Shown here in pieces: positions 1,472-8,188 of a DNA stretch of 10,026 nucleotides. The notes beneath the pieces are model-generated. The model ran no database searches. It saw nothing but the letters and a program-made list of their open reading frames with translations, and was not told the origin of the DNA. The translations under genes and the position numbers were made by a program. This stretch comes from a virus (taxonomy: Duplodnaviria; Heunggongvirae; Uroviricota; Caudoviricetes), in IMG/VR virus record IMGVR_UViG_2706794694_000003. One strand, given 5' to 3'. Each line of letters starts with the position of its first letter. Positions within the stretch are counted from its first letter, which is position 1.

Positions 1472-3205
1472 TTAAAGCGAGCGGATCCCGTAGGACTCAA
1501 TGTGGTCAGACAGCGTGTCTTCTTTCTCGTACAGCATGGCTCTGCCAACCGCCATAATCAGCGCAACTGCACCATCGATTTTGTTTTCCGCCTGCTCTTT
1601 GACGGGTTTCACCACATCATCGTTACCCGGCATGTTTTTGCCGACCACGTTGCCGATACACCAGGTCATGATGGGATTGCCGTCATGATGAAAACGTCCC
1701 GATTCAATCGCTGCTTCCAGCTCTTTCATCGGATCGGACATATTGGTGAAGTTCTGGACGATAGTGACGGGATTCAGGTCTTCATCAGCAAGGTCATGTG
1801 ACAACCCGGTCGCCCCGAAGGGGTCGATGGGTGACTCACTGACCGGGCTGATTTTGTTCGCCGCTTTGGCCTCCTCGAGGATGTAGCGATAATCCACCTC
1901 CGCACCATCGGTAACGGTCAGAACGCCCATTTCCACCCATTTCTGAAAGCGTTCGGCTGTCCGTCGATCTTCATTTTTCTCGACGCTGTACACCGTGTCA
2001 TACGGTACCCAGAAACGCGGGGCCACACTGTAGTAATGCGTTTTACCGTCAATCTCGCGGGTATAAAGTCGCGCCATGCTGTTCATATCCAGCTTACGCG
2101 CCAGGTCAAAGGCCAGAATGCACGGCTGCCCCTCGAACTGCTCAAGGGTCAGTGATTTATCCTCGCAGCTCTGCCAGCTCACCAAGTTGAAATACGCCGA
2201 ACGCGCCGACACCCAGATATTGAGGTGTTTTGTTTTAAAGACGTTTGCCAGACGGGCGTTATTTTTCGCACGCTGCTGCTGACTTAACAAAAATTCGCGA
2301 TAAACCGACACGCCAATATTTGGATTGGCTTTTTCCAGCACCTGCGGGCCGGTCCAGTCGTCACCTTCATCAACGGTATAGATGATCCCGAACAGTTCAT
2401 CGTTAGGCACCGAGCCGTTGAGCATCTCGATGACTTCCCGCCGCTTGTCGTAGCACGGCCCCTCAATGTTGTACCCGGCGGTGGTGATGGCCCACATCAG
2501 TGGCTGACGTCGCGCCCCCATCCCGGTAAGCATTGTGGTATAAAGCGCATCGGTGGCATGCTCGTGATATTCATCAACCACGGCACAGTGGGGTGATGAA
2601 CCATCACCTGGGTTGCCGATCAGCGGTTCAAACCGCGCGCCATCCTCCGGACGGTTCATGTTTGAGGCGTTAACCTCAATCCCGAACGCTTCCGTCAGCA
2701 TGGGTGTGCGTTTACACATCAGTCGCGCCGGGCGAAAGACTTCCCACGCCTGTTTCTCTGTCGTGGCACCGGAATACACTTCCGCGCCAAACTCGTTATC
2801 ACAGGCAAAACAATACAGGGCAACACCGGCAGAGATTGCTGATTTGCCGTTCTTACGGGGGATTTCGGTGTACACCTCCCGGAAGCGGCGCAACCGGGTG
2901 CCTTTATTGACCCAGCCAAACGCACAGCAGATCACAAATAGCTGCCACGGCTCCAGCGTGATGGGCATCCGTTTGAATGCCCACTCCCCCTTGGTGTGCG
3001 GCAACAGCTGAATAAATTTCGCGGCCCGTTCAGCCAGGTCCTTGTCGAAGCGGTAACGAAACGACTTACTTTTTTCCGCCATCAGGTCATCAAGATGGCG
3101 CTGGCAGGCCTGAATCACAAACTGGCAGGCAACAATCTTTCCGCGCACGACATCCCGGGCATACTGATTTGCAGCATTTACGTTGGGGTAAGATTTCCGG
3201 CTCAT
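1472..3205 (-). CDS. Phage terminase large subunit
   Basis: 577-aa ORF with ATG start whose ATGA overlaps the stop of the upstream small-subunit gene. Walker A-like RKNGKS motif and typical ATPase/nuclease-length architecture. It follows the small subunit and precedes the portal. Confidence 0.9.
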
Positions 3206-3696
3206 GATTCGATAATTTTCAGAAACGGGTTAGTGGCTTTCTTCTGCCCCGCCAGGCCAATCAGACGCTGGCGGCTGCTGGGGTCGAGTCCGAGCATTGC
3301 CCCCGTGCTGCTCATCTCGGACTCCTGTTCTTTTTTGGCGGTCAGCTCCGGATTTTTGACCCTGCCGCCCATTGCACCGGTGATGGTGTTGCCCTGTATG
3401 GCAATATTTTTCACGGCACGTCGCCAGAACTCATAGGCCACGCACCACCGCTCAAGTACCGCCAGGTCAGTCACGCACAGCAGGCCCTGACCGCAGAGTT
3501 CTTTGGTTGTCAGTTGCCACATGATCGTGGCGAGAGGGAGATCTTCTTCAGCGAACCACTCTGGTGGCTCAACACCTTTGATGGGCGTAAAAACAGGTTC
3601 ATCTTTGTTCAGGGCTCGCTTGCCGGGGTTTCCGGCCAGCGCCTTGCGCGCCGTTGGCTTGGGGCGACGCCCGGAACGCCCCGCCGTTCCAGCCAT
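3202..3696 (-). CDS. Phage terminase small subunit (P27-like family)
   Basis: Chosen start is ATG 3696-3694 ([18 protein letters not shown]...), preceded by AGGAG at about 8 nt. The track start at 3705 is GTG and adds 3 codons. The basic N-terminus is typical of small terminase subunits. Stop overlaps the large-subunit ATG. Confidence 0.8.
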
Positions 3697-3746
3697 ATGC
3701 GGCACTCCTGGTTAAATTTCATTTTTCGCGGGTATAAAAAAACGAT

Positions 3747-3795
3747 GGGGCGGGCAGTCCGGAAGACGTCAGGTCACAGGGATTTGCCCCGCCCC
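3747..3795. other. GC-rich imperfect inverted repeat between the HNH gene and terminase small subunit; candidate cos site or terminator
   Basis: GGGGCGGGCA (3747-3756) and TGCCCCGCCCC (3785-3795) are near-perfect reverse complements separated by 28 nt. On the minus strand the element is followed by TTTTTTTAT. It sits where HK97-like phages place cos. Confidence 0.3.
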
Positions 3796-3817
3796 TCCCT
3801 ACAAGTGAGAATAATTA

Positions 3818-4168
3818 TCACCGGATTCGTTCGCGCGCTGTTTTCGCTTTATGGCAGGGCCAGCACAGACTCTGCAGGTTGCTGTCTGCGTCTGTTCCGC
3901 CATGCGCTTTCGGGATGATGTGGTCGACGGTTTTCGCCTCGCTCACCACACCGACACGCAGACACAACTGACACAGACCTTTATCGCGCTTCAGAATACG
4001 GGCACGAATCACCGTCCATTTTGAGCCATAGCCACGCTGGTGGCGGCTCAGTCCGCGCTGGTGCTGCACCCAGCCTTCACCGCGATGTTTATCGCAGTAA
4101 CCCGAACTGTCTGTGGTTGTACCTGCACATCCACGCTTACGGCAGGCACGTGGGATTAGTGATGGCAT
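3818..4168 (-). CDS. HNH endonuclease (packaging-associated, HK97 gp74-like position)
   Basis: 116-aa ORF with ATG start and GAGGT RBS. Cys-rich N-terminal region, then DHIIPKAHGG and CWPCHKAK, consistent with an HNH/zinc-finger nuclease. Located immediately upstream of the terminase genes. Confidence 0.85.
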   Translation of the reverse strand: MPSLIPRACRKRGCAGTTTDSSGYCDKHRGEGWVQHQRGLSRHQRGYGSKWTVIRARILKRDKGLCQLCLRVGVVSEAKTVDHIIPKAHGGTDADSNLQSLCWPCHKAKTARERIR

Positions 4169-4210
4169 AAATACCTCATACCCTGCGAAATGTTTACCAC
4201 GATAAAAAGG

Positions 4211-4465
4211 CTACTTAATGCACTGAGTGCGGATATACTCCTGTGCCCCTTCCAGTTGCATCTGCATCGTCATCAGCCGCTCTCTGAGGGTGAAATAATC
4301 CCGTTCAGCGGTGTCTGCCAGTCGGGGGCTGGTTGCATTATCCACGCCGGAGGCGGTGGTGGCTTCACGCACTGACTGACAGACTGCTTTGATGTGCAAC
4401 CGACGACGACCAGCGGCAACATCAGCGCGCAGAGTTTCATTTTCAGCTTTCGCATCAGCTAACTC
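4211..4465 (-). CDS. Rz: Rz-like i-spanin, C-terminal part (5' end lost in the N gap)
   Basis: The frame is open from the gap edge to TAG at 4211-4213. Translation ...ENETLRADVAAGRRRLHIKAVCQSVREATTASGVDNATSPRLADTAERDYFTLRERLMTMQMQLEGAQEYIRTQCIK closely matches the lambda Rz C-terminus as I recall it. Confidence 0.8.
   Translation of the reverse strand, partial: ELADAKAENETLRADVAAGRRRLHIKAVCQSVREATTASGVDNATSPRLADTAERDYFTLRERLMTMQMQLEGAQEYIRTQCIK
4273..4455 (-). CDS. Rz1: Rz1-like o-spanin lipoprotein, embedded in Rz in another frame
   Basis: ATG at 4455; MRKLKMKLCALMLPLVVVGCTSKQ... has a signal peptide with a lipobox Cys and a proline-rich mature region. Entirely nested within the Rz reading frame, the classic Rz/Rz1 arrangement. 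Confidence 0.75.
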   Translation of the reverse strand: MRKLKMKLCALMLPLVVVGCTSKQSVSQCVKPPPPPAWIMQPAPDWQTPLNGIISPSESG

Positions 4466-4715
4466 NNNNNNNNNNNNNNNNNNNNNNNNNNNNNNNNNNN
4501 NNNNNNNNNNNNNNNNNNNNNNNNNNNNNNNNNNNNNNNNNNNNNNNNNNNNNNNNNNNNNNNNNNNNNNNNNNNNNNNNNNNNNNNNNNNNNNNNNNNN
4601 NNNNNNNNNNNNNNNNNNNNNNNNNNNNNNNNNNNNNNNNNNNNNNNNNNNNNNNNNNNNNNNNNNNNNNNNNNNNNNNNNNNNNNNNNNNNNNNNNNNN
4701 NNNNNNNNNNNNNNN
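4466..4715. other. Assembly gap (250 N)
   Basis: Uninterrupted run of N from 4466 to 4715. Confidence 0.95.
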
Positions 4716-5001
4716 CCGGTATATCGACTTTGATGTACGGGTTAATTTGTCTGGCGACAGTGGCAAGGTCTTTATTCAGGAGGGCTTTGCATTCTGCTTC
4801 GGTATACGTTTTACCGAGCATGATGTCTTTTCCGGTGTGTCCGTGACATACAGTCCATACACCAATGATATCTTTGTATGGTATGTAGCTGACACCTTCC
4901 AGACCATCGTTACCACCTGGGCCAGTGATTAACACAGATGCTATAGCAACAGCCCCACCACCAATAGCAGCTGCAACAGCCTTGCGTAATGATGGCGACA
5001 T
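4716..5001 (-). CDS. R: SAR-type endolysin (phage lysozyme), N-terminal 95 codons; 3' end lost in the gap
   Basis: ATG 5001-4999 with GAGGTG RBS. The Gly/Ala-rich N-terminal segment ([27 protein letters not shown]) is a signal-anchor-release domain, followed by lysozyme-like sequence ([22 protein letters not shown]...). Resembles the phage 21 endolysin as I recall it. Confidence 0.85.
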
Positions 5002-5216
5002 TATTCACCTCTCGCAGCCTTACGCTTGTCTTCTCTTATTTTGAAATACAGATTTGTCAGATAAGTCAGAAGCCCCAGAAGCAGACTTCCCAGCACACCA
5101 ATCGCAGCCCACTGTGATGGACTGACCTGATCCAACCACTGCAAAAACCAGTAGCCGGCACTGCCGGCGGAGGTGCCGTAGGCAATGCCTGTTGATATTT
5201 TTTCCATCTGATACAT
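5001..5216 (-). CDS. S: Class II holin (phage 21 S-like pinholin) with dual-start motif
   Basis: 71 aa, [71 protein letters not shown], with two transmembrane segments and a charged C-terminus. Met1 and Met4 give the antiholin/holin dual start. Stop TAA shares a base with the endolysin ATG. Confidence 0.85.
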
Positions 5217-5246
5217 ATCCCGCCCCCCGACAGACCTGTGCTATCG

Positions 5247-5283
5247 GAAAGAAAAAAGGCCATCAGCAAAACTCTGATGGCCT
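5247..5283 (-). terminator. Intrinsic terminator-like hairpin upstream of the holin
   Basis: On the minus strand: GGCCATCAG-agttttg-CTGATGGCC (9-bp stem) followed by TTTTTTCTTT. Confidence 0.5.
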
Positions 5284-5896
5284 GAATCACCTTTACCAAT
5301 ATTGTATGAAAAAACACGCACGACTAATTGACAATAATTTTCATTTCCATTAAAAAAGATCGCGTAGCATTCTTAATTCATGAGGAACTTTACCCGCCAG
5401 CAATCTGAGTAGCGAAAGCTGTTCATCCCCAATGTTTTTGCTGGCGGGTCCTTTTTTCTACGGTCCTCCTCCCCGGAGGGGGGCATTTCATTATTTTTCT
5501 AATCGTTACTGGTGAGAAGGCGGAAGAAAAAGCCAGTTCTTCGCCCCTAAATAACAGCATGATTCCAGTCCATGCAAAATCTGATTTCCAGCTCACACAT
5601 ACCGAGCGCTGTACAAAAAACCGCCAGCCAAGGCAGTTAAGAGTGTGTTCCCGGGGTTTGCTTAGAATATTTTGTAAGTTGTCCGAAGAGATATTTACAA
5701 CACCAGAATGATGAATCATCAGTCCCCTGCCAGAGGTTCACTACGTAACCTGACCGACAATGCACCATTCTGGTGCTGAAAAAAGAGCACTGGAACTGCA
5801 ACAAAACAACATCACAGAACAGGAGATGGTAAGGAGTCAGACATTCCCACACAATATTGTGTCAGTGCAAATAACAACCTTCGTCTCAAATCTCGC

Positions 5897-5971
<75 letters not shown>

Positions 5972-5974
5972 ATA

Positions 5975-6050
<76 letters not shown>

Positions 6051-6052
6051 GC

Positions 6053-6129
6053 TGGCCCACCACCGAGGACTCGAACCTCGCACCGTCAACTTAGAAGGTT
6101 GATGCTCTATCCGGATGAGCTAGTGGTGG
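6053..6129 (-). tRNA. tRNA-Arg (anticodon UCU), unusual C1:G72 acceptor start
   Basis: Reverse complement CCACCACTAGCTCATCCGGATAGAGCATCAACCTTCTAAGTTGACGGTGCGAGGTTCGAGTCCTCGGTGGTGGGCCA. Cloverleaf folds with a perfect 7-bp acceptor stem, anticodon loop CTTCTAA, encoded CCA. Confidence 0.75.
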
Positions 6130-6130
6130 T

Positions 6131-6207
6131 TGGTGGCCCTTGCTGGACTTGAACCAGCGACCTGGCGATTATGAGTCGCTCGCTCTGACCAACTGAGCTA
6201 AAGGGCC
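6131..6207 (-). tRNA. tRNA with CAU anticodon, most like tRNA-Ile2 (lysidine type, reads AUA); tRNA-Met cannot be excluded from sequence alone
   Basis: Reverse complement GGCCCTTTAGCTCAGTTGGTCAGAGCGAGCGACTCATAATCGCCAGGTCGCTGGTTCAAGTCCAGCAAGGGCCACCA. Closely resembles host ileX-type tRNA as I recall it. Anticodon loop CTCATAA. Confidence 0.8.
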
Positions 6208-6216
6208 GGAGGCAGA

Positions 6217-6245
6217 ATAATAACCATATGTCATCACATCTGCAA
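6217..6245 (-). promoter_or_regulatory. Putative sigma70 promoter for the tRNA cluster
   Basis: Minus strand TTGCAG (6245-6240), 17-nt spacer, TATTAT (6222-6217), about 9 nt before the first tRNA 5' end. Confidence 0.4.
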
Positions 6246-6293
6246 ACTCATCTGACCACCAGCACGTTTAACGTCCTGTGCCGTTTTTCAGGT

Positions 6294-6320
6294 ATAAAAA
6301 AACCCGCTCATCGGCGGGTT
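6294..6320 (-). terminator. Intrinsic terminator downstream of the ORF6N-domain gene
   Basis: Minus strand AAACCCGC-cgatga-GCGGGTTT followed by TTTTTTAT, about 75 nt after the stop at 6397. Confidence 0.6.
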
Positions 6321-6396
6321 TAAGCTGTGTGGCGTAGTAACCACTCTTAACAGGATATTCAACTTTTTACGATCGTAAAGTTTTCGGAAAAAATTT

Positions 6397-6960
6397 TTAA
6401 AACCGCATCAACCGCTCCACCAGTTGCTCTTTACGGGCAACGATCCACCCGTGTTGCTCCAGATAAAATTTAAACCGTTCCAGAGTACATACCATCGCAT
6501 CGGCGGGTACCTTTTCCGTGAACTCAACCTGACCGTGTTTATCGAAGTGGCTCAGTAATGCGCATCCATCATTTTCGATAGATGTGTTTTGTGCCGCTGG
6601 TGGCTGTTTCTGGTTGAAATAACAGTCTTCCAGTTTTTCGAACACTTCCCACGCCTGATCGGTTTCGAGCATTTTGGCGTGACGGGCTGCGCCACGTTCT
6701 GTCCAGAGGATGAGGGAGCGAACGTTACGGGCAATTTTCACAGAAACTCTTAAAGAGTTTTCGTTCTTCAACTCTCGTAACGCATCACCTTCTATCAGGA
6801 AAAAATGTTTACCTTCTATAAACCGTTCTTTGTTTCGATTGAAATTGTTTGTCAAACGCTGGCGCTCTGTTCCGTACAAATCAGCCAGCAGCTCTGTTGT
6901 CATGACAGGAAGATGGTTATGCGTAAGTGACGGGAGTTTTTCAATAGACGTGCGATTCAT
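6397..6960 (-). CDS. ORF6N-domain (KilA-N/Bro-N-like DNA-binding) protein with a C-terminal domain of unknown function
   Basis: Chosen start ATG 6960-6958 (MNRTSIEK...), 7 nt after AAAGGA; an ATG two codons upstream at 6966 is an alternative. N-terminal region LPVMTTELLADLYGTERQRLTNNFNRNKERFIEGKHFFLIEGDALREL...WTERGAARHAKMLETDQAWEVF matches the ORF6N pattern as I recall it. The track's 253-aa version begins at GTG and adds a Trp/Cys/Phe-rich stretch overlapping the promoter, which I discount. Confidence 0.7.
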   Translation of the reverse strand: MNRTSIEKLPSLTHNHLPVMTTELLADLYGTERQRLTNNFNRNKERFIEGKHFFLIEGDALRELKNENSLRVSVKIARNVRSLILWTERGAARHAKMLETDQAWEVFEKLEDCYFNQKQPPAAQNTSIENDGCALLSHFDKHGQVEFTEKVPADAMVCTLERFKFYLEQHGWIVARKEQLVERLMRF

Positions 6961-7166
6961 AGACATGTCCTTTCGAATATTTTGATTTACCCCTTTTGAG
7001 AGGGTGACCGGGCGCTCAAAACCGTCGAAAGTCGGCGGGCGTATTTCCATTGCTGGTATTGTATTAGCCGCACACCCGGTCATAAACCAAGAATTCTGGA
7101 CACAAAAAAACCACATGGCTATCGGGTGTGGATACCGCTTTCGAGGTGTTTTGAGCACCGCGGGGA

Positions 7167-7195
7167 AATGTAAACTGCAAACCTGAAACTGTCAA
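7167..7195 (-). promoter_or_regulatory. Near-consensus sigma70 promoter facing the ORF6N-domain gene
   Basis: Minus strand TTGACA (7195-7190), 17-nt spacer, TACATT (7172-7167). The roughly 200-nt leader contains a short hairpin plus T7 run (about 7101-7131). Confidence 0.4.
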
Positions 7196-7320
7196 CACCG
7201 TCAGGTTCCAATCATCGGGTGGTGAGACGCACAGGGTTGGAACTACCGGGAAACCGACCGGCGAGCTTTTCAGCTCCCCCATGCGCCCCACCATAATTCA
7301 GATGTGCGCGTGCATACGAC

Positions 7321-7345
7321 AATAAAAAACACGCTCGCGGCGTGT
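7321..7345 (-). terminator. tR'-like intrinsic terminator ending a short late leader transcript
   Basis: Minus strand ACACGC-cgcga-GCGTGT followed by TTTTTTATT, about 55-80 nt downstream of the predicted pR' start. Confidence 0.55.
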
Positions 7346-7406
7346 GTCTGTCGCGGTCTCTATCCGGGGTTCCAATCCCGACGCCAGATTTTGCTGGCGC
7401 GTGAGG

Positions 7407-7436
7407 AATATAGCCCCGGACAATGTGTCTGGTCAA
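7407..7436 (-). promoter_or_regulatory. pR'-like late promoter immediately downstream of Q
   Basis: Minus strand TTGACC (7436-7431), 18-nt spacer, TATATT (7412-7407), 5 bp past the Q stop codon. The predicted 5' leader forms a CGCCAG-caaaat-CTGGCG hairpin (7382-7399). Confidence 0.5.
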
Positions 7437-7440
7437 GCAC

Positions 7441-7827
7441 CTACATAATTCGTTCTACGTATCTGTCCATCTCCAGCCGGATATCAAGCATCATCAACAT
7501 GCCATCAATAACCCCTTCCGCTTTCTGCAGGCGCTTGCCAATACAGGTATCCGAACACCCATGTTTCCGTGCCAGACTCATAAAAGTCATTCCACCTACG
7601 TAATAATCCACCAGCAAATCGTGCAAATCCTGATTTTTCTTGTTCAACCGGGCCATACAGCCACAAATTATCATTGCATCATCATCAGAACACTGAGGGC
7701 GTGATTTCACTTTCGACGGAATTAACCCTTTAAAACCAGCAGCGATCGACGCCCAGGATACATCTTCATGAGTGTTTGCAGCCCAAGCCCCCCACCGTTC
7801 CATAACCTGCTGAATATCACGCGCCAT
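7441..7827 (-). CDS. Late-gene antitermination protein Q (Stx-phage Q933-like type)
   Basis: Chosen start ATG 7827 ([25 protein letters not shown]...) with AGGTGA RBS; the track's upstream ATG at 7848 adds 7 codons. Cys clusters (CGCMARL, HGCSDTC) suggest zinc binding. Resembles the Q of Stx2 phages as I recall it. Overlaps the rusA stop. Confidence 0.8.
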
Positions 7828-8188
7828 CGTTATCACCTGTGATTTCATAAATCTTCACGCCCAGTCGCCCACCAGGAACGAGCTGACCGCGCACAATATT
7901 GATTTCATCAAACTGCTCGTCGTCTATGAGTAGTCCGGCATGCGTCAGCGCATCCAGTGGTGCTTTCAGGATATTGTCCAGGTCACGACGGCGCTTATCC
8001 GGTGGCTCTGCAATAATCTTTATCGCCAGCCTTCCGGACAGGTTTAATTTCAGCCGCTGCTGGCGAACAATTAGCGTCACATCACGGCGATAACGCTCAC
8101 CAACTTTTGATACAAAATATGTGCTGCCACGACGTCGCCAGTAAGTATTCACCGTCGGCGGATAAGGTAAAATAAACTCATGGCGCAT
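7817..8188 (-). CDS. rusA: RusA-family Holliday junction resolvase
   Basis: 123 aa; [15 protein letters not shown]... and [29 protein letters not shown] match the RusA catalytic region (compare DRRRRDLDNLQKAAFDAL in E. coli RusA as I recall it). ATG start, in the nin-region position before Q. Confidence 0.85.

Follow-up and report, generated by a model that had tools for sequence, protein, structure and literature searches.

The GC-rich inverted repeat between the HNH endonuclease and small terminase genes is very probably the cos site of a lambdoid prophage of the SfV/SfI/phiP27 type

What is the function of the GC-rich inverted repeat that separates the gene for an HNH endonuclease from the gene for the small terminase (terS; product, TerS) in a 10,026-nucleotide (nt) stretch of tailed-phage DNA, referred to here as the window, from IMG/VR virus record IMGVR_UViG_2706794694_000003 (Caudoviricetes)? 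An earlier note, made from the letters of the window, had proposed the repeat as a candidate cohesive-end site (cos) and had named a terminator of the HNH transcript as the alternative. On the plus (+) strand, arm 1 (GGGGCGGGCA) was found at 3747-3756 and arm 2 (TGCCCCGCCCC) at 3785-3795, and the 28-nt spacer between them (3757-3784) contains TCCGGA at 3758-3763 and GACGTC at 3765-3770. The core reported by the repeat finder consists of 8 perfect G/C pairs (GGGGCGGG/CCCGCCCC), to which GCA/TGC adds on past a 1-nt C bulge, and the A7 run at 3736-3742 of the + strand reads as T7 on the coding (minus) strand, 4 nt (ATCG) beyond the stem. The GC-rich arms, the length of the spacer, its two short palindromes, and the coding-strand T7 run were thus all laid out as the earlier note had described them. 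We consider the repeat to be very probably the cos site of a lambdoid prophage with a packaging module of the SfV/SfI/phiP27 type, made up of an HNH protein, a P27-family TerS, an HK97-related large terminase (TerL), and a portal protein. Homology to experiments on related phages shows it as a cohesive-end site, for which the predicted 10-nt end is TGCCCGCCCC.

The evidence that carries this conclusion came from the ends of related phage genomes. When positions 3300-4300 of the window were compared with phage records by megablast, several Shigella phage records were found to begin or end inside the repeat. For one of these phages, SfI, virion DNA had been subjected to run-off sequencing outward from HNH-side and terS-side primers, and the reads left a 10-nt gap relative to the prophage, 5'-TGCCCGCCCC-3' (PMC3636060). 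The SfI gap sequence is the reverse complement of window positions 3747-3756; that is, arm 1, read on the minus strand, matches the SfI cohesive end at 10 of 10 positions and would be the equivalent of cosN. The SfI record starts with GTCGTTTTTTT (GTCGTTTTTTTATACCC) and ends with ...GGACTGCCCGCCCC (...TTCCGGACTGCCCGCCCC), and SfI position +1 therefore corresponds to window position 3746. The cohesive-end sequence is the same or nearly so in SfV, SfII, and ST64B, and the phiP27 record carries, at the homologous position, a 10-nt misc_feature labeled "cos-site" that reads CGCCCGCCCC on the coding strand. Moreover, when the right and left ends of the HK97 record were joined and aligned to the window, no gaps were needed up to and across the junction, and the HK97 junction (...CGCCGCCAAA/GTTTG...) shares a column with the SfI junction (window 3747/3746). 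The candidate of the earlier note was borne out by these comparisons, in which arm 1 equals the SfI cohesive end base for base and aligns in register with the phiP27 cos-site and the HK97 junction. The element was also present in every homologous packaging module examined, and no refutation came from that side.

The same comparisons allowed the cleavage positions to be predicted. HK97 DNA has ends with 10-nt 3' overhangs, its HNH protein gp74 stimulates cos cleavage, and its TerS binds an A-tract-containing site at +15 to +29 (PMC11331095, PMC9410871). Because the SfI run-off reads left a gap and not an overlap, the 5' ends of SfI would be recessed and its overhangs 3'. From this gap together with the HK97 overhangs, we infer a 3' polarity for the window as well, with predicted nicks at 3747/3746 on the coding strand and at 3756/3757 on the + strand that would leave 10-nt 3' overhangs.

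To describe the anatomy of the region, two sets of related loci were collected: 80 viral contigs with TerS proteins 99 to 100% identical to that of the window, and 56 loci, drawn from bacterial genomes taken one per species, in which TerS is 46 to 99% identical; the latter came from Shigella, Edwardsiella, Klebsiella-like genera, Xenorhabdus, Morganella, Rheinheimera, Burkholderia, Cupriavidus, and others. Conservation was scored over 42 non-redundant relatives from Enterobacterales, Alteromonadales, and Burkholderiales, in window coordinates and on the coding strand. The sequences were anchored on CGCGAAA, a motif that occurs in all 140 related sequences having upstream DNA and whose invariance in the 42-sequence alignment follows from the construction of the anchor. 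Anchored in this way, the relatives aligned nearly gap-free, with register shifts of at most 1 nt. All followed one layout at near-fixed spacing, in which a G-rich block and AAATCYCT are followed by a variable spacer, by GAC and a C-rich 10-mer, and finally by a T-tract with ACCCGCGAAA.

The distal block, on the HNH side and on the minus strand, consists of the G-rich sequence GGGAGGGGCGGGG (3799-3787) followed by CAAATCCCT (3786-3778) and contains arm 2 (3785-3795); in the alignment, the conserved positions run from 3799 to 3788 for the G-rich block and from 3785 to 3778 for AAATCYCT. A counterpart is found in HK97 as GGGGGGGGATCAAATCT. We propose that this block may serve as a right-end recognition or termination element, similar to lambda cosQ. 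Downstream of it lies the variable spacer (3761-3777, minus strand), a stretch of low information content that holds GACGTC and part of TCCGGA. Next comes the GGAC flank (3757-3760, minus strand), which on the coding strand abuts the 5' side of the cohesive end and adjoins the predicted + strand nick; A3758, C3757, and G3755 are conserved in 100% of the relatives, and the HK97 counterpart of GGAC is TGAC. Within the cohesive end itself, the 5' half (G3755 and then CC) is tightly kept and the 3' half is looser.

Beyond the cohesive end, the T-tract with its adjoining AT (3734-3742, minus strand) spans +5 to +13 from the predicted coding-strand nick and includes the T7 run (3742-3736). The relatives all have TTT at 3740-3738; conservation of the T-tract with its A is 83 to 100%, and the conserved tract is 3741-3736. 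The most conserved block is ACCCGCGAAA (3724-3733, minus strand; +14 to +23), a putative TerS recognition site equivalent to cosB. Its position corresponds to the mapped HK97 TerS site at +15 to +29, the full 10-mer occurs a single time in the window, and the CC flank of CGCGAAA is, like TTT, invariant independently of the choice of anchor. An A/T block, AAATTTAA (3712-3719, minus strand; 76 to 98% conserved), lies downstream of the putative TerS site.

At the other edge of the region, an imperfect 15-bp palindrome, TGATAAT-T-ATTCTCA (3806-3820), covers the HNH stop codon and resembles a Fur box. The 15-bp consensus TGATAATNATTATCA (7-1-7), which we take to be the Fur box, was matched in the window at 3806-3820 with 1 mismatch and at 5329-5343 with 2 mismatches, against 0.03 matches expected. 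Many relatives have the palindrome of 3806-3820 at the equivalent position; in two of them (L099 and L110) its half-sites are arranged perfectly, and HK97 has a weaker form. This palindrome is possibly an accessory, host-factor site of the cos region. The second Fur-box-like palindrome (5329-5343) is situated upstream of the holin gene. In the Xenorhabdus and Morganella prophages (L111-L129), a short inverted repeat brackets the cohesive-end region, for example, CCAAGG-GACCGCCA-CCTTGG; the partner of the G-block in these prophages is CTCTCGCCCC in the spacer, and 60 to 80 extra bases stand between the conserved block and the terS start.

Read in the light of HK97 and SfI, this anatomy suggests how the site may work. 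On concatemeric DNA, the small terminase would bind the T-tract and ACCCGCGAAA (3742-3724), just inside the left end. The TerL nuclease, aided by the HNH protein, would nick each strand at one border of TGCCCGCCCC (3756-3747), with 10 bp between the nicks, and so create complementary 10-nt 3' overhangs, after which packaging would proceed through the genome from the terS side. When the next cos is reached, the HNH-side block of G-rich sequence and AAATCYCT (3799-3778) is likely to aid recognition or termination, and the TGATAAT palindrome perhaps acts at the right end too, like lambda cosQ or as a host-factor site.

The two halves of the region appear to be inherited separately. Phages of the phi467 type (L150 and L151) resemble the window in their HNH gene, their G-block/AAATCTCT, and an end made up of GTAC plus CGCCGCCTGA, in which CGCCGCC is kept, and the similarity ends at about 3777; their TerS and TerL are 24% and 39% identical to those of the window, and the stretch after their cohesive end is without ACCCGCGAAA. 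By contrast, among contigs in which TerS and the proximal half are identical (L008-L087), several different distal halves and HNH alleles occur. The proximal block therefore goes with the small terminase and the distal block with the HNH side, and the variable spacer (3761-3777) is a recombination joint, or module boundary, within cos. A broader reading of these exchanges is tentative, and we regard it as rather doubtful: HNH-assisted terminases, whether of HK97, of SfV/P27-type phages, or of Burkholderiales prophages, would use cos sites built on a common modular code of near-fixed geometry in two halves, undescribed as such. The distal half of such a code may comprise the Fur-box-like palindrome, the G-rich block with AAATCYCT, and GAC about 20 nt further on, and it may be recognized by the HNH protein and large terminase together and passed on along with the HNH gene; the proximal half, which in the P27 family would be the T-tract and ACCCGCGAAA, may be read by the small terminase. 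If this were true, the variable spacer would be the joint that lets phages exchange halves, and the complementarity between the G-block and the cohesive end might reflect one nuclease recognizing both.

If the repeat is cos, the question arises of whether its symmetry is itself a signal, acting as a DNA cruciform or hairpin or binding one protein symmetrically, so that cutting by terminase and HNH would need it. As a bare pattern, the repeat is moderately unusual: the window has a single 8-bp inverted repeat composed entirely of G/C pairs and with at most 40 nt in the loop, against 0.05 expected, and at least one was present in 3.7% of shuffles. The arms of the window are more complementary than composition-matched shuffles (z = -2.2; P = 0.02), 17 of the 42 relatives reach a P value of ≤0.05 with within-block shuffles, and the pairing is specific for the register, with 60% of cells paired compared with 43 to 49% once the 3' partner is slid. 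Against this, pairing between the G-block and C-block of the same sequence was no better than pairing across lineages (permutation P = 0.64), and the paired cells amounted to 60.2% versus 61.8% in column shuffles, with 486 of 500 shuffles at least as high. The alignment of the 42 relatives showed no excess of double changes in the hairpin columns, and RNAalifold returned an empty consensus structure for the same sequences. Natural recombinants with GGGGGAGG opposite an unchanged CCCGCCCC have a broken and uncompensated stem, and the predicted cut is at one arm and not at the dyad. The folding energies are not exceptional either, the DNA hairpin reaching only -13.1 kcal/mol (z = -1.7) and the RNA hairpin -25.8 to -26.8 kcal/mol (z about -1.2 to -1.3) relative to dinucleotide shuffles; 6 to 7% of these shuffles folded equally well, so that the stability of the hairpin is ordinary for its composition. 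A functional symmetry is thus unlikely. Rather, nothing points to selection for a stem: the inverted repeat arises from two independently conserved motifs, the G-rich distal block and the C-rich cohesive end, whose consensus sequences happen to be complementary. The earlier note had taken the symmetry as a likeness to cohesive ends, and what holds of this is that the site is very probably a cos; the predicted cut falls at one arm, and the arms show no compensatory evolution. The spacer palindromes to which the note pointed are located in the sole non-conserved stretch. GACGTC and TCCGGA were also considered as functional sites and rejected: they are not conserved, shuffled sequences fold as well as the repeat spacer (z = +0.38), and spacer structure reached a P value of ≤0.05 in only 4 of the 42 relatives.

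The alternative raised by the earlier note was that the hairpin and T7 run form a Rho-independent terminator of the lysis/HNH transcript, instead of or besides cos. On the coding strand, a GC-rich stem (-25.8 kcal/mol as RNA) does follow directly after the HNH stop codon and precedes a U7 run, as in such terminators, and late expression could survive a terminator at this place because the antiterminator Q, encoded upstream, could read through it. However, a terminator scan found no sites in 3000-4600, whereas the same scan, applied to 4800-7500, detected canonical intrinsic terminators on the same, late-operon strand at 5283-5257, 6321-6300, and 5638-5619. The geometry is also not that of a canonical terminator: the loop measures 28 nt compared with about 3 to 8 nt typically, 4 nt part the stem from the U-tract, the stability of the hairpin is within the range of shuffles, and the 42 relatives yield neither a consensus structure nor covariation. 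Rfam covariance models gave no match in 3600-3950 even at an E value of ≤1, the gathering-threshold matches in the window all lying elsewhere. Moreover, phi467 has the same hairpin without an adjacent U-tract, and relatives with poorly pairing arms still keep the T-tract as part of TTTTTAYACCCGCGAAA. Since the block formed by the T-tract and ACCCGCGAAA changes when the small terminase changes, the T7 run is not a terminator tail but belongs to a conserved element linked to the small terminase. No promoter-like site was found between the hairpin and terS, so that expression of terS and terL would need transcription past the hairpin, which is possible with Q. Termination was for these reasons rejected as the main function, and we consider this explanation very improbable, although some minor termination may take place here in the uninduced lysogen. 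Still less credit can be given to a chance GC-rich inverted repeat devoid of any packaging role, with the true cos or pac elsewhere. Inverted repeats of 8 bp are common in 10 kb (17 seed matches at 8 distinct places in the window versus about 5 in shuffles), but a chance origin does not account for identity with a mapped cohesive end and with the record termini of related phages, nor for conservation at near-fixed spacing across bacterial orders, and it is effectively refuted.

Several points weigh against the assignment of the repeat as the cos site, or at least against its details. Both the nick positions and the 3' polarity come from homology, and the polarity leans on the interpretation of the SfI method. 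The prophage could be defective, its ends being placed by homology alone. The records of SfV (U82619.2) and SfIV (KC814930.1) begin at window position 3763, within TCCGGA and 17 nt upstream of SfI +1; these record starts do not coincide with the physical end to which the SfI data point, and the SfIV authors state that their own sequence was simply linearized. The TerS of the window is without detectable sequence similarity to HK97 gp1. Finally, we infer both the binding of TerS to ACCCGCGAAA and the role of the G-block.

The genes around the repeat are those of a Q-antiterminated lambdoid late operon. All are on the minus strand, in the order holin, lysozyme, Rz, HNH, the gap with the repeat, TerS (Terminase_4), TerL, and portal, with Q upstream; before the lysis genes come, also on the minus strand, a DnaB-like helicase, RusA, the antiterminator Q (7441-7848), a small RNA (sRNA)/anti-repressor region, and four transfer RNA (tRNA) genes. 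The repeat stands exactly where HK97-like phages have cos. The gap between the HNH gene and terS extends from 3697 to 3817; the start at 3706 given in the earlier note derived from an upstream in-frame GTG and had to be corrected. The gap is bounded by the HNH stop codon (TGA, 3820-3818, minus strand) and by the terS ATG (3696-3694, minus strand), which agrees with SfV orf1 and is preceded by a ribosome-binding site, AGGAG (3709-3705, minus strand). The HNH endonuclease gene (3818-4168, minus strand; Pfam HNH, E value of 1.6e-16) would encode the packaging partner of terminase; its product is 34% identical to HK97 gp74 over 70 amino acids (E value of 2e-10), and its top PDB sequence match was the GVE2 HNH endonuclease 5h0m. 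The small terminase gene (3202-3696, minus strand) encodes a protein of the Terminase_4/P27 family (Pfam PF05119, E value of 3.7e-20) that is 48% identical to phiP27 L35 and whose homologues are labeled in RefSeq as "phage terminase small subunit P27 family." The large terminase gene (1472-3205, minus strand; ATPase and nuclease; Pfam TerL_ATPase and TerL_nuclease) encodes a product 26% identical to HK97 gp2 over 522 aligned positions (E value of 8e-31) and 78% identical to phiP27 L36 over the N-terminal 331 amino acids. The portal gene is at 122-1369 and the holin gene at 5001-5216, both on the minus strand.

Other features of the window were recorded alongside. A run of 250 masked positions (N) at 4466-4715, inside the lysozyme open reading frame (ORF; 4459-5001, minus strand), hides part of the endolysin gene. 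One example of the canonical intrinsic terminators, AGGCCATCAG-AGTTTTG-CTGATGGCCT followed by T6, is situated just upstream of the holin gene, and such terminators are presumably read through by Q-modified polymerase. The four tRNA genes (5897-6207, minus strand; Gly-tcc, Thr-tgt, Arg-tct, and Met-cat) separate the Q region from the lysis cassette. Downstream of Q, at 6998-7413 on the minus strand, Rfam matches above the gathering score comprised isrK (7324-7400), the C4 antisense RNA (7215-7298), the a1/b1 target of C4 (7361-7413), and sRNA-Xcc1 (6998-7081), adjoined by an ORF6N-domain protein (6397-7158); this cluster and the ORF6N protein constitute a P1/P7-like antisense-controlled anti-repressor module inside the lambdoid late region. 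Two further inverted repeats with 11-bp arms were seen, one at 5393-5448 (CCCGCCAGCAA...TTGCTGGCGGG; 34-nt loop) spanning the 3' end of an unannotated ORF (5423-5719) and one at 60-89 (AATCCGGAAAC...GTTTCCGGATT) downstream of the portal ORF, near the left edge of the window.

As a finding, the cos site is an ordinary one, already known, mapped in SfI and annotated in phiP27. A 301-bp region was matched in 1294 of 5426 complete E. coli genomes, the packaging module thus being present in about a quarter of them, and the result has little value as a discovery; a literature text search for the 10-mer cohesive end returned unrelated papers only. Only the comparative picture, of a two-module cos with near-fixed geometry across distant hosts, is modestly new, and it extends known biology. 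The result is of use for annotation, in that the natural prophage ends would be set at 3746/3747 and 3756/3757 and the prophage would be marked as a cos packager, from which generalized transduction by the headful route is not expected. In addition, the conserved geometry, the TerS-linked ACCCGCGAAA, and the exchange of modules at the spacer could guide experiments on DNA recognition by HNH-assisted terminases.

Known cos systems can be compared with the window, the closest of them being that of the SfV/SfI/phiP27 phages. The lambda cos has 12-nt 5' overhangs, no HNH partner, Nu1 as its small terminase, and symmetric nick sites within cosN. It shares with the window the tripartite logic of a right-end-side element, a staggered nick site, and a TerS-binding region before the terS gene, but differs in having 5' overhangs where 3' ones are predicted for the window, in lacking an HNH protein, and in that Nu1 is unrelated to the TerS of the window. 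In HK97, cos is likewise between the HNH gene and terS, its TerL and HNH protein are homologous to those of the window, and its DNA aligns without gaps from the TGA(T/G)AAT palindrome across the junction through a G-run, TCAAATCT, GAC, and a C-rich 10-mer, with a conserved block containing an A/T tract about 15 to 30 bp inside the left end. The cohesive end of HK97 would, however, be CGCCGCCAAA, its TerS site is CTAACCCGATTTTTT compared with ACCCGCGAAA in the window, and the distance from the HNH gene to cos is about 300 bp compared with 60 bp. The small terminases could not be matched at the sequence level, the level at which their likeness was judged: a BLASTP comparison of the window TerS with gp1 gave an E value of 6.9, gp1 was without a Terminase_4 match, and a PDB sequence/profile search with the window TerS returned no terminase (a single-sequence AlphaFold2 model of TerS, with a predicted local distance difference test score of 39.5, was unusable). 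Thus, of the HK97-type features, the window has the HNH gene upstream of terS-terL-portal, a gp2-homologous TerL, and an alignable cos, and its TerS lacks sequence homology to gp1. The likeness to HK97-like phages drawn by the earlier note accordingly holds for the HNH protein, TerL, and the cos DNA and fails for the small terminase, and because of this failure at the sequence level the system was filed as P27/SfV type and not as HK97 proper. Of the features of the SfV/SfI/phiP27 type, the window shows a C-rich 10-nt end in place, a P27-family TerS, and flanks at near-fixed spacing. The Stx2e phage phiP27 (AJ298298) differs in having C and not T as base 1 of the cohesive end, AAATTTTT and not T7 as its T-tract, and another A/T block after ACCCGCGAAA; in common with the window it has the G-block, AAATCCCT, GGAC, ACCCGCGAAA, a TerS of the same Pfam family, and the annotated cos-site. 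The Shigella phages SfI, SfV, SfII, and SfIV are of this type too. Arm 2 is GGGGCGGGGCA in the window and GGGGCGGGTCA in SfV and SfI, the HNH allele of SfI is 79% identical in amino acid sequence, and the 10-nt ends measured on SfI virion DNA are transferred to the window prophage by homology. All four nevertheless share with the window the 10-nt cohesive end TGCCCGCCCC, flanks that are identical or near-identical from the G-block to the terS start, a terS region with 97 to 99% DNA identity, and the order HNH-cos-TerS-TerL.

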